A stretch of 64,000 nt of DNA from Mobula hypostoma (Eukaryota). The notes under the pieces were generated by a model, which saw nothing but the letters and a program-made list of their open reading frames with translations, searched no databases and was not told the origin of the DNA. Location of the stretch: contig NW_026948219.1 in assembly GCF_963921235.1 (NCBI RefSeq), positions 310,001 to 374,000 on the forward strand. The letters are read 5' to 3'. The position numbers and the translations under genes were made by a program. How positions within the stretch are numbered: the first letter of the stretch is position 1; every line of letters starts with the position of its first letter. This document shows, piece after piece, positions 39,268-42,970 of the stretch.

Positions 39268-42200
39268 TGTAACACTCGCTTTGCCTAGTGGCATGATCGC
39301 GGGGTGATAACACCCCCTGCCCGGCCAAGCCTTGGCACTCTCATTTGGGTGGATGCTGCGTGCGATGTCCCCTGTGTAAAACCAGTACCCCATAATAACC
39401 AGCAGTACACAATGTGCGGTTAAACGATCAAGATTTTATATTTAAGTATGGGGTTAGTAGAGAAACAAAAGAAAAGAAAAATCATATAAAAGGCGCCAAT
39501 AATCTCATGAACATGTCCAGTGCACAAACGTTGGAGCTCACGGATTCCCTTTTGATGATCCTCCTTCGCTGTTCGTCAACCCCTGGGTTCCCGCACCGAG
39601 CCCAGTCCCAGCGGGTCCGGCAACCGTCTCCTCAAGCCACCTCTTCTCTTTTCATCCTCAACACGCCTTCTCCTCAAAGCCCGCGCAAACTAACAGCTTT
39701 CACACAGACAGAAAGAATAACATCTATCCCAATCGGTTAACAGATGAATACAAGTCCCGTTATCACTAATTATAACCCAATCATGCTGCTATAGAGAACC
39801 ACTGCCTTAGCAATTAACCGTACAGAGAAGCCAGTTTATTATAATTAGCATGTACATAAAAGTAACCCCTGCACTCTCCCCCCACCAAATTTAGTCATTT
39901 CCTCACGACTTCTAAATAATTCGCCGACCCTTCCTGCAGACACAAAACCCAATCCAGATACAAACAGTGACATCGCTCCCCAAACAATAGACCTTACCCC
40001 TTGTTCCCCAGGCGCTACATAGGCCAACCTATCTTTGAGTTTCCTAATCCTCTAAGACCTCTGTACCCCCCTCACCTAAACCCTTCAGGCTCAGACACTA
40101 CTGGGGATACCTCGGGTCTGCTCGCCGAATCCTCTTTCAATCTCTCACTCATGCCTCCATGCAACTCGGAGCCTCCTGTCCTGTGTCCAGGCACCCCTGT
40201 CTCTCCTTCAGGGTCCTGCAGTCACCCAGGCTGCCTACAGCTAGCCCACCCCCCACCTCCCCTGACTCAGTGGGAGAAGGGCCAGGGGTCTCTTCATCCA
40301 ACAAGGGGAAGTGAGCGTAAGGCAGCCTGTACCACACCTCCATCTCATCATCTTTCGAATCCGTATTCTTCCCCTCTTCCTCGATTGGTAGCTGTTGGTT
40401 GGTTGTCTCCACGCTGGAGCACTTGGCCTGGGCTGCTTCTGCAACCTCTTCAGCCTCCTCTAATCGAGACGACAACTTCGTCTTGGACCCCTCCAACTCT
40501 CGCCACAGTCTCAGCAGTTCTGACTCACGCTTGTTGGCCATCTCCATCTGGGACGCAGTTTCTCCACCAGCTTCTTCCACCCAGGCTTGGTATTCCTTAA
40601 ACTTCCTCTGAAGAGCAGCAGTTAGAGATTGTGCAGCCTCCAGTTTAGTGTCCACTGAGCTTATCTCCAGCTTTTTTTTCTTGATGACTTCTTCCAGGTC
40701 AACTTTCAGTTTTTCCATTTCATTTAAACTGTCGATGGTCATCTTCAGGTTCCCTTCAAGCTTCCACTTCTCTCTTCCGAGATCTGTCCGCCACTGCTTC
40801 ACCTCCTCGGAAGTGTATTCAAACTGCCCTCTCTGGGCTCTCTGTTTTCTGTCAGACAGACAGCTTTCTTTGTCCTCCGCAACTTGCAAGTCTTCCAATC
40901 TGTTCTGGATCAATTTCTCCAGGAACTGTTGAAGAACACTCACAGGCTGCGACCTTCGCCAGACCTGGCCCGTTTCCAGAGAAAATGTTAACTCTTTAGT
41001 TCTCTGCCGCTCCTACAACAGCCTCGCTTCATATTCTTCAGAGGCAGATCCAAATACTAGGAGATCATCCAAATGCAGCAAACTTCAAACAATTCCACAT
41101 CCCCCACCATCTTCCTCATGCCCCGCGGGAAGGTTGCAAGGGCTCCGGATATGCCCTGGGGCATCTTTTCGGACTGGAAGCATCACAGGGGACCTATAAC
41201 GGCCGTCTTCGCCTTGACGGCCTCACTCGTCGGGATCTGGCAACATCCACTCCTCAGATGCCGCACATTAAACCACTTTGCACCACTCAGACAGACCAAC
41301 GCGTCTTCGACCCTCGGGCCCGCATACTGGTCAGGGACGGTGCGCCTGTTCAGAGTCCTATCATCCGCACACTCGCTCCCTACATCTCCCACGTCTACAG
41401 GGGCCAGTCGCCGCGACCTCTCTCTCACTGGGACCTCTTCAGCTGTCAACTCCCCGCTTCGCGGTATTTCGGAGCGTCCACTAAGAGAGCGTCACGTTCA
41501 GATACTCCCCCCGGGCCGTACCACCAACGGCTCTCGTTTATCTTCGGTGCCGGCCCGAAGCTGCCATACACGCCCTCTGCAGCAGCTCGAAACGCTGGTG
41601 CACAGACAATGTCCCCAGAGAGCTCTCACCCGCCTTCTCCTGGCAGGCCTCCTCACAAGCGGGGTGTGGATCCCCTCCCGAGTCGAAACGCTGCCGGTCC
41701 GGACACATCAACACTGACGACTCACCAACCTCAGACACCCACACCTTGGCCTCCGAGAACTCCAGTTTCACTGACAAGTAACCATCGTCTGGATAACTCG
41801 GAATCACCAGACCCTGAATGGTGTCAAGGATAAATGCGTCAAATACCGGTTGTAGAACGAACTGCAACCCAACTCGACCTGCGCCCCGGTGTCGAGGAAG
41901 GCCTTAGCATAGATTCCCTCTATCCGTAATGACACACGGGAGCGTGGTCCCACTAAGCCCGCAGGAATAGGGTCTTTTCCTTCCGGGAGTTCCTTGGTAC
42001 ATTCCTGGGAACGTGTTATCCCAGAGACTTATCCCAAGCCGTCCCCCCACTGGGTCTCCATTAAGTTTCCCGACACCTCTCTAATCAGCTGAACAACTGA
42101 AGGAGGAGCTGATCCCCCTGGCACCACAAGCAACTTAGCTGCTCCCCTAGCCAAAGAAGATACCTTGAAAACTTTTTCCCAATCTCCTGACATCCTGACA

Positions 42201-42970
42201 CAGGTACGGAAAGCCCCCCAGGTGCTGTATATTACTTCCATTCGAAGCAAACGCATTTCCCCCGCTTTCATATGACTGGCAGCGGCCACTACGGGGTAAC
42301 TGAACCTGACAGTTCCGACACCGTCAGCAGCCCGCCTACTCAAACTTTCAACCAATCCCTGTCGCTCTCCCTCAGCCGAGCACTGCCACTCATCTAACAA
42401 CCCCGCCCACGTCCCGTACGCCTCCGCCCCTCCAGGGGGAGGCATGATTCCAAAGGAAAAGCAGAGCCTACCATAGCGGGAACATCCGTTCGCCAGAGAA
42501 ACACAGGCAGACGCTACCTCGAAATTCTCCCTCTCCACCGGGGGACGAGGACTGGTTAGACATCCCAACTCCACACACTCTTCCCCCTCCCTCCTGACAG
42601 TAGGGACAGCCCCTGGCCCCGCCTCACCCGGGGCACCAACGGACACTGGCGATCCCACCTCCGTGACGTCAGCGCTACAGCCAGGACTGAGCCCGCCGTT
42701 TCATCAAACTTTCGCGCCACGATTTCAAACTCACCATCAGCTTTAAACATACTCATAAATCGAACAATTCATCCAAGGTACGAATATCTACCCCACTCAA
42801 CCCGTTACTGACCCCAATCCCACAGAGGCACACATTACTAACCGCAAGCCCACAGAGACAAATCAGCACTGATTTAAAATCGCTGCAATAGAGAACCACT
42901 GCCTCGGGAATTAACAGTACAGAGAAGCCATTTCATTATAGTCAGCAAGTACATAAAAGTAAACCCTAAA
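39268..42970 (-). mobile_element. Non-autonomous Gypsy LTR element (PNMA-like gag, protease, partial RT) carrying a myosin rod insert
   Basis: 3' LTR ~39268-39872 with PPT CTCTCCCCCCC; partial 5' LTR 42880-42970 matches 39786-39870; gag LDEWQCSAEGERQGLVESL; protease AFLDTGAQV at ~41880-41902; RT LNRRTVPDQY and [14 protein letters not shown] motif at ~41050-41080. Confidence 0.85.
40377..40910 (-). pseudogene. Captured intronless myosin heavy-chain rod fragment (MYH16-like) within an open 264-aa frame (40149-40943)
   Basis: LEDLQVAEDK; KLEGNLKMTIDSLNEMEKLKVDLEEVIKKK; LQRKFKEYQA; EEAGGETASQMEMANKRESELLRL; KLSSRLEEAEEVAEAAQAKCSSVE are sarcomeric myosin rod signatures. Confidence 0.8.

Follow-up and report, generated by a model that had tools for sequence, protein, structure and literature searches.

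A probable non-autonomous Gypsy LTR retrotransposon family of myliobatiform rays carrying an MYH16-like myosin rod fragment in place of integrase

The capture of host mRNA by LTR elements through template switching is known in animals from LTR-mediated retrocopies (Tan et al. 2016, Genome Res 26:1663, PMC5131818). As described there, these retrocopies consist of partial spliced host mRNAs that lie in the sense orientation and in frame between non-contiguous stretches of an LTR element, lack a polyA tract and a target-site duplication (TSD), and may re-transpose as non-autonomous elements. A further mark of this class is microsimilarity in the DNA at the switch points. Maize Bs1, treated in the same source, is an LTR element with host exons from three donor genes, present in 1–5 copies that share their switch points, and with secondary retroposition. 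The mouse IAP 1-delta-1 element is a class II endogenous retrovirus that is non-autonomous, internally deleted, and in need of helper proteins, and its single fused frame reportedly exerts its effect in cis (Gagnier et al. 2019, PMC6466679). Finally, the Barthez lineage of Gypsy elements is listed in a table as a PNMA progenitor (PMC3670739).

The window analyzed here (a stretch of 64,000 nucleotides from Mobula hypostoma) contains an element that very probably belongs, as a dead copy, to a non-autonomous family of Gypsy LTR elements in myliobatiform rays, in which an intron-free and internally deleted MYH16-like rod piece replaces integrase, with a single capture from spliced mRNA via template switching of the reverse transcriptase (RT) and subsequent copying in trans by intact helpers as the likely history. 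The insert resembles these retrocopies in being partial and spliced, in its sense orientation and frame, in lacking polyA and TSD, and in belonging to a non-autonomous element, but the animal cases described in PMC5131818 are young and low-copy (one or few sites), whereas the ray chimera predates the split of stingrays and devil rays, forms many subfamilies, and was recently amplified in Hypanus. Bs1 is likewise similar in its common switch points, but the ray family has one donor, at least nine loci in one Hypanus subfamily, and a vertebrate host. The single fused frame of recently amplified IAP 1-delta-1 copies has its counterpart in three Hypanus loci encoding 729 amino acids; IAP carries no host insert, however, and its cis effect is experimental (PMC6466679), whereas here such an effect is deduced from a stop deficit and from sequence only. 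A PNMA-like gag, a 4-bp TSD, and a polypurine tract (PPT) are shared with PNMA-gag Gypsy elements (Barthez; medaka P0133; P0259), which in the intact relative have the order PR-RT-RH-IN, whereas the window copy is without RNase H, integrase, and most of the 5′ LTR. The capture mechanism itself is thus already known (Tan et al. 2016; maize Bs1), and new here is a young Hypanus subfamily with an intact 729-codon frame. Captured exons that gave rise to a long-lived vertebrate family with repeated rounds of amplification amount to many natural replicates and permit a test of whether selection on non-autonomous elements favours translation as such, a question that now rests mainly on IAP 1-delta-1. 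The word “myosin” is absent from the main text of Tan et al. (2016), as are “myosin” and “MYH” from the main text of the ray genome papers examined; no literature on this element family was found, although Repbase, Dfam, and ray-genome supplements, which were outside the search, may list it.

The order and coordinates of features on the minus strand that a first-pass annotation had proposed from the sequence alone were confirmed (table 1). The element shows the hallmarks of Ty3/Gypsy LTR elements, with TG...CA direct LTRs, a PPT, and a flanking 4-bp TSD (4–6 bp expected). In contigs from three out of four sequencing runs, which represent other copies of the host repeat, an empty site joins position 39250 to 42971 with a single 4-mer, and in the contigs of the fourth run (also other copies of the repeat) 39250 is joined to 42986 instead. 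The first bases of the 5′ LTR stub are changed and the stub runs straight into gag; the distal LTR half, a primer-binding site, and a leader were looked for after the stub of the window copy and not found. One related contig that diverges from the window above position 42878 weakly hints that the loss of the 5′ LTR is private to the window copy. The 3′ LTR is 73–74% identical to related LTR ends at 47360–47583 and 59094–59280. No tRNA genes are present in the 64-kb window. LINE remnants are abundant in it and interrupt two neighbouring Gypsy pieces.

Table 1. Features of the element and its flanks in 5′ to 3′ order of the minus strand (positions in the window)
Feature	Position	Strand	Remark
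TSD, upstream copy	42971..42974	-	TAAG (minus strand); empty-site joints
5′ LTR stub, first ~89 of 606 bases	42882..42970	-	87% to 3′ LTR start; 76/89 ungapped
PNMA-like gag remnant, frameshifts and stops	42029..42850 (upper limit approximate)	-	PNMA E 0.0022, below cut-off
Aspartic protease and linker, broken	41589..42028	-	tblastn to P0259 7–165, E 4e-27; RVP E 0.077
RT to end of RVT_1	40950..41440	-	tblastn to P0259 353–551
Open frame, 287 codons (last RT residues, myosin mosaic, pol tail)	40149..41012	-	stop to stop
Myosin rod block 1	40578..40925	-	skate MYH16 917–1034
Myosin rod block 2	40485..40577	-	skate MYH16 1070–1100; 22/31 identical
Myosin rod block 3	40371..40484	-	skate MYH16 1309–1346; 21/38 identical
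Element's own post-integrase pol tail (DSKDD..W..LP), later part frameshifted	39887..40370	-	P0259 1334–1365 and 1455–1522
PPT	39874..39886	-	purine run directly before 3′ LTR
3′ LTR, 606 bp, TG...CA	39268..39873	-	ends TGTTACA; complete
TSD, downstream copy	39264..39267	-	TAAG

The coding remnants were compared with P0259, an intact Gypsy pol with the domains RVT_1, RT_RNaseH, Integrase_H2C2, and rve (order RT-RH-IN). The gag-PR-RT-tail order is collinear with this reference except that RNase H and integrase are deleted. The gag and protease assignments of the first-pass annotation are backed by collinearity with P0259 and P0020 (for the gag remnant, with P0020 from nucleotide 42487), but the Pfam scores of both lie under the curated cut-offs. 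An RT is present as proposed; it is not limited to the N-terminal part and continues until RVT_1 ends (56% identity to P0259), and it has lost 33 residues to a deletion and is broken by one frameshift and two stops. Between protease and RT, a candidate compensated frameshift of 25 codons was rejected, as the stretch fits the ancestral frame with a few codons shifted at most. The RT piece is in frame with the myosin sequence, at which point the thumb/connection, RNase H, and integrase are absent (approximately 780 pol residues, P0259 552–1333); the RNase H and integrase of P0259 match nothing in the element, in agreement with their proposed replacement. The pol tail that follows the insert matches P0259 at 40355–40260 and 40069–39872, and its DNA is 70% identical to a neighbouring Gypsy tail at 32496–32841. 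Overall, 8–10 frameshifts and 3 stops were counted in the window copy, the gag and pol of which are broken as first described.

The match of the insert to myosin rods was borne out by phmmer (E = 8e-15 to myosin-4), with 12 out of 177,635 PDB sequences matching, all of them myosins. The estimate of about 180 codons was close (185 codons), but the insert is made up of three non-adjacent blocks and not of one stretch; 35 rod residues are missing between blocks 1 and 2 and 208 between blocks 2 and 3 (skate MYH16 numbering), the second deletion disrupting the heptad register. The six isoforms of the Narcine locus XP_069785577-583 differ at A|SSEQ, LGQ|HRL, RGE|CEH, and EYQ|ARV, and the insert crosses the last three of these borders, which are taken from predicted isoforms, without a gap. 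Block 1 therefore passes three Narcine exon borders without an intron, as claimed from the first reading. No polyA tract at the insert and no duplication around it were found (the longest word common to both ends is 5 bases). The insert thus derives from part of a host mRNA, has no introns, and is bordered at either end by the same LTR element, in line with the earlier proposal of mRNA capture by a Gypsy element; it matches myosin, has no TSD or polyA of its own, and is not confined to a single copy. It is very improbable that a LINE-made processed pseudogene of a myosin landed in an already dead Gypsy element: the plentiful LINE remnants that cut into the two neighbouring Gypsy pieces would fit such an origin, but the ends of the insert carry neither polyA nor duplication, the insert is a mid-gene piece, the missing pol residues were replaced at the very site, and the junction is common across species.

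The best full-length matches of the insert in protein searches are proteins of MYH16, the masticatory (jaw-type) myosin heavy chain. Block 1 is 44–50% identical to jawed-vertebrate MYH16 and 72–76% identical to a truncated, intron-bearing Narcine gene (insert against the Narcine MYH16-like gene 72/95, against skate MYH16 41/93 identical). All 12 element inserts in one tree form a single clade (100/98) that is sister to the Narcine gene (100/100). A further rod tree, which like the p-AU tests covers 21 out of 31 rows (leaving out block B0, mis-projected for several element rows, as well as row P0018 and part of P0014), places the inserts inside the MYH16 family (100/97), supporting the MYH16 assignment of the first-pass annotation. 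An origin from MYH7/7B/13 was rejected (p-AU = 0.004). Within the MYH16 family, the lamprey, jawed-vertebrate, and Narcine/element branches may join in more than one order: a placement of the Narcine/element branch with skate MYH16 received p-AU = 0.14, and one with all jawed-vertebrate MYH16 p-AU = 0.39. Judged by sequence, the direct donor is a divergent MYH16-like gene represented in Narcine and not the canonical MYH16 as in skate; the Narcine gene is either a fast-evolving MYH16 or an old paralogue. The insert is thereby a record of a batoid MYH16-like gene that is divergent and had gone unrecognised. Word-limited protein searches, which are weak evidence in this respect, returned no full-length donor myosin from Hypanus, Mobula, Hemitrygon, or Narcine.

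A protein search identified 19 matches, of which 17, all short models, belong to Hypanus, Hemitrygon, and two Mobula species; myosin is followed by the DSKDD tail in 11 out of 17 and preceded by RT in 6 out of 17. The 3′ junction and one internal deletion are common to the proteins of the four ray species and further deletions define subfamilies, which bears out the earlier suggestion of a multi-copy non-autonomous family. One Hypanus cluster comprises 10 proteins, encoded at 9 loci spread over 6 contigs (92–98% identical in the 15 pairs compared), including three 729-aa proteins from separate loci that are 93–97% identical. Dispersed copies thus share their switch points, and the window copy has its own TSD, as found after secondary retroposition. 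The presence of the chimera in Hypanus, Hemitrygon, and two Mobula species points to one likely capture followed by amplification, probably by intact helpers; as read from these proteins, the chimera predates the split of stingrays and devil rays and was amplified recently in Hypanus. No chimeric protein from sharks or skates occurred among the named matches (10 out of 150 were named in one list), and a metagenome scan with P0020 gave 86 pattern matches and 0 confirmed loci.

The position of the spliced host sequence, with RT/RNase H remnants on one side and the pol tail of the element on the other, would be explained if, close to the RNase H end, RT switched to a myosin mRNA packaged with the element RNA and switched back at the post-integrase tail, by analogy with Tan et al. 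(2016). Later deletions in the descendants, seen in the proteins of four ray species, mark out the subfamilies, and the chimera, having no working enzyme, would need the Gag and Pol of helpers. The window copy has lost most of its 5′ LTR and has decayed.

The window copy has no single fused open frame. The 264 codons first reported are open and fused to the tail, but they are the last part of a frame that extends over 287 codons, matches no Pfam family, and has its first ATG only 90 codons in. The frame contains 0 breaks in 861 bases compared with 11–13 in 1475 bases of gag-pol (fixed-window P = 0.0005–0.002); its boundary was picked afterwards, however, and correction for this choice leaves the openness borderline unusual (largest-gap P = 0.04–0.12). 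A co-option by the host of the chimeric protein or of the window copy's myosin frame, or an action on helper particles, as a coiled-coil module, which the first-pass annotation had considered, would draw on this contrast, on the presence of only 1 proline in the 185 residues of the window copy, on contigs that cover myosin and tail of other copies in two runs presumed to be RNA (none shown for the window copy, and no run with the sequence being listed as RNA on record), and on RefSeq models that join the piece to host genes (TMEM192, SDHAF3, and GSTT2 names). Such a role is improbable in light of the late first ATG, the heptad register broken by the 208-residue deletion, and the content of the inserts, which have gained prolines and tryptophans (18 prolines in 1342 insert residues vs. 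0 in 2545 residues of 13 host myosins, the copies being related and the counts not independent), have lost different blocks in each subfamily, and diverge at least at the pace of the dead RT (myosin identity equal to or below RT identity in most pairs). At the level of the predicted proteins, prolines, fast change, and variable blocks argue against host domestication.

A history with the same capture and amplification in which myosin and open frame are passengers, the 729-codon copies being survivors selected by annotation, is possible, if rather doubtful. It agrees with the fact that every relative was drawn from protein databases, since a sample of RefSeq predicted proteins favours open-frame copies, with the damage to the window copy and the borderline openness of its frame, with LINE remnants in the window that retain frames of 260 and 402 codons, and with 4 out of 13 differences inside the frame at third positions, as under neutrality (among the 40 listed of approximately 1,010 rows). 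The young Hypanus subfamily is harder to accommodate. Its protease motif D-T-G reads G-T-G in 5 out of 5 Hypanus frames reached by a motif search (and in P0107), and its RT branch is approximately ten times faster than that of an intact relative (0.52–0.59 vs. 0.04–0.05), a rate of about 0.5 changes per RT site that should bring many stops. Even at 0.2–0.4 changes per site, 7.5–17.6 stops are expected in 650 codons (probability of none 6e-4 to 2e-8), taking the whole RT branch as unconstrained and a 121-residue RT stretch to stand for the entire frame. P0020 is collinear with the window DNA and its first 650 codons therefore need no intron; at least seven large junctions in it, virus–host ones included, are in frame. 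Furthermore, RT and myosin share an open frame in Hypanus as well as in Mobula, in separate subfamilies with only 50–62% identity in myosin.

The 729-codon frame of the Hypanus subfamily, kept despite the lost protease aspartate and the fast RT, suggests selection for translation in cis and not host co-option. Source copies likely stayed mobile by means of one long open frame, the encoded protein being apparently junk. On balance, it seems somewhat favoured that they were selected for one uninterrupted frame of irrelevant content, with translation in cis aiding the survival or packaging of the RNA and myosin serving as stop-free filler. A nearly even chance is given to the wider proposal that the host fragment was kept in this role for tens of millions of years through translation-dependent hitchhiking on helper particles, the frame but not the protein being selected and myosin restoring read-through to the pol tail, and that the insert is the fossil remnant of a divergent MYH16-like gene whose stingray counterpart may be decayed or gone. 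Where repeated motifs (EE, ELEE) bound a deletion, the mechanism itself tends to keep it in frame, which counts against frame selection. Several copies are labelled “MYH16,” “myosin-16-like,” “myosin-7B-like,” or isoforms of TMEM192, SDHAF3, and GSTT2 in RefSeq, and these labels would make counts of the ray myosin family misleading.

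The analysis, based on the 64-kb window, protein databases, the contigs of four sequencing runs and the literature, confirmed the first-pass annotation of a minus-strand Gypsy element at 39268-42970 that carries a MYH16-like myosin rod where RNase H and integrase would lie (LTRs, target-site duplication, pol map and myosin match). Pfam identified RVT_1, RNase H and integrase in the intact Gypsy pol relative P0259, and a protein-to-DNA comparison found no counterpart of its residues 552-1333 in the element. No primer site was found after the 5' LTR stub in the element sequence in the window. 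Compared with a 729-aa Hypanus relative, the window contains 8-10 frameshifts and three stops at 42487-41013 and no frameshifts or stops at 41012-40251; this copy of the element is dead. Contigs from three of the four runs join 39250 to 42971 with a single copy of the 4-mer, and contigs from the fourth run join 39250 to 42986; they are other copies of the surrounding repeat in which the element is nested. The sequence of this repeat, which we take to be CR1, resembles a LINE endonuclease.

Features of the Gypsy element and of the remainder of the window
Feature	Position	Strand	Remark
Target-site duplication	42974-42971 and 39267-39264	-	TAAG, 4 bases; bounds element
5' LTR stub, 89 bases			76/89 identical to 3' LTR start
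Protease	42028-41589	-	counterpart in P0259
RT, 33-residue deletion	41440-40950	-	counterpart in P0259
Post-integrase tail	40355-40260 and 40069-39872	-	counterpart in P0259
3' LTR, 606 bases	39873-39268	-	preceded by purine tract
NLR-type frame	2-1033	+	NOD2_WH, NLRC4_HD2
Tandem array	2117-8594		about 20 units of 326 bases
Assembly gap	25106-25245		140 N, outside element
Rhodopsin-family GPCR frame	26498-27532	+	single exon, 345 codons
Gypsy remnant	31670-33130	-	integrase end, tail, purine tract, LTR; 46% to P0259 1171-1316; no myosin found in it; truncated upstream by LINE
LINE, presumably RTE-like	33140-36440	-	260-codon frame
C2H2 zinc-finger array	48805-49962	-	13 fingers by pattern
Gypsy integrase end and tail	56085-57350	+	71% to P0259 1166-1269; split by ~700-base LINE piece (22-base target duplication at 56347 and 57054)
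C2H2 zinc-finger array	59471-60442	-	10 fingers by pattern

The proposed myosin identity was borne out by 198 codons (40943-40350) that match 12 PDB sequences, each of them a myosin rod, with a best E-value of 8e-15. The insert consists of three blocks, 185 codons in total, corresponding to skate MYH16 917-1034, 1070-1100 and 1309-1346; the gaps between them (35 and 208 residues) both fall where a motif is repeated (EE, ELEE), which would be expected of template-switch deletions. Six predicted isoforms of a short Narcine bancroftii gene diverge from one another at four points, indicating exon borders, and the window crosses three of these four predicted borders without interruption, in line with the proposed intronless insert. 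Signs of an independent retrocopy were sought at the insert: there is no A-run at its 3' junction, and the longest word common to its ends is five bases.

The best full-length matches were MYH16, and the nearest host sequence was the Narcine gene (72/95 identical; skate MYH16 41/93 over the same stretch). All 12 element inserts formed a single clade sister to the Narcine gene in one tree; in another, of 21 rows and 196 columns, inserts and gene together fall within the MYH16 family beside lamprey and jawed-vertebrate MYH16 (100/97), supporting the suggested MYH16-like origin. A MYH7/7B/13 origin was rejected (p-AU 0.004); grouping with skate MYH16 (p-AU 0.14) or with all jawed-vertebrate MYH16 (p-AU 0.39) was not. 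The Narcine proteins (P0012, P0015, P0102-P0105) represent a MYH16-like gene that is truncated, spliced and divergent, matching jawed-vertebrate MYH16 at 55-60%. A cysteine retained in block 3 of the inserts is present in lamprey and other myosins and absent in jawed-vertebrate MYH16, which hints at an old paralogue or at reversion. MYH16, the masticatory myosin, is reported from shark jaw muscle in the accessible text of PMC11050549.

All 19 near-length matches of a protein search are ray proteins; Hypanus sabinus, Hemitrygon akajei, Mobula hypostoma and M. birostris account for 17 of them and Narcine for two. Myosin is joined to the DSKDD tail, the element's own post-integrase pol tail, in 11 of the 17 and RT to myosin in six, and the second of the insert's two deletions is common to those that span its site. 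Several relatives have an RNase H scrap (P0259 about 699-746) before the myosin and also extend the myosin further 5', back to about residue 905, suggesting that the original swap likely replaced mainly integrase and that the window copy lost more afterwards. One Hypanus cluster (10 proteins, nine loci, six contigs; 92-98% identity in 15 pairs compared) is apparently a recent burst. Since both dasyatids and mobulids carry the chimera, the capture is older than the divergence of the two groups, which dates back tens of millions of years. At single myosin variant sites, the number of run X1 contigs that deviate from the window copy ranges from 11 to 40, and run X5, from a second organism, is alike; this fits many copies, with no copy count derivable. 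Capture of the myosin and amplification of the chimera are considered highly probable. RefSeq models P0020, P0122, P0118 and P0019 fuse element pieces to host genes (named TMEM192, SDHAF3 and GSTT2; P0019 unnamed), and in predicted models the AFQ/V deletion junction is a likely splice acceptor in several copies.

The accessible text of Tan et al. (2016, PMC5131818) describes, across animals, LTR elements that capture spliced host mRNA by switching template twice and later transpose again; it cites 1-5 copies for maize Bs1. The ray element shares those features of this class, as set out there, that could be checked, but differs in age, spread and open-frame signal. A literature search found no papers on a ray Gypsy-myosin family, and myosin is absent from the main text of two ray genome papers.

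The myosin part of the element is probably not functional. Prolines make up 18 of 1342 residues in nine (related) inserts, whereas 13 host myosins have none in 2545, and between-copy identity is mostly 43-78% for myosin and 59-86% for the dead RT, with myosin at or below RT in most of 21 pairs. The open frame of the window copy is improbable by chance at a fixed window (P 0.0005-0.002) and borderline with a floating boundary (0.04-0.12); LINE remnants in the window retain open frames of 260 and 402 codons, and 4 of 13 listed differences within the frame, a small, pre-filtered set, are at third positions. The prolines, the myosin identity and the borderline frame all argue against the suggested co-option of the coiled-coil module by the host, which is very improbable. 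Contigs over the myosin and tail of other copies were found in two runs guessed to be RNA, and the contigs of the runs gave no support for transcription of the window copy; none of the runs is registered as RNA.

A single 729-aa frame (gag-protease-RT-myosin-tail) occurs at three Hypanus loci and is collinear with the window DNA, so that its first 650 codons require no intron. These frames have lost the protease aspartate, and their RT lacks 33 residues and the thumb; changes on the RT branch amount to 0.52-0.59 per site vs 0.04-0.05 in the intact relative (outgroup medaka). Neutral change of only 0.2-0.4 per site predicts 7.5-17.6 stops in 650 codons, with a probability of 6e-4 to 2e-8 that none occurs (stops counted, frameshifts left out). 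At least seven large junctions preserve the reading frame. Annotation selects open copies and microhomology biases deletions toward in-frame ones, but these effects seem too weak, the stop deficit being larger than they seem able to explain. Because of that deficit and the in-frame junctions, selection of source copies for translatability, with the frame kept without its protein, has somewhat better than even chances. Under such selection the open frame might shield element RNA from decay or, alternatively, permit its co-translational capture into helper particles. The accessible text on mouse IAP 1-delta-1 reports that a fused frame aids retrotransposition in cis (PMC6466679), which may serve by analogy as a precedent for frame selection, the ray case being read from sequence alone.

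Elsewhere in the window, each zinc-finger array adjoins an LTR end related to the LTR of the element (47360-47583, 59094-59280).
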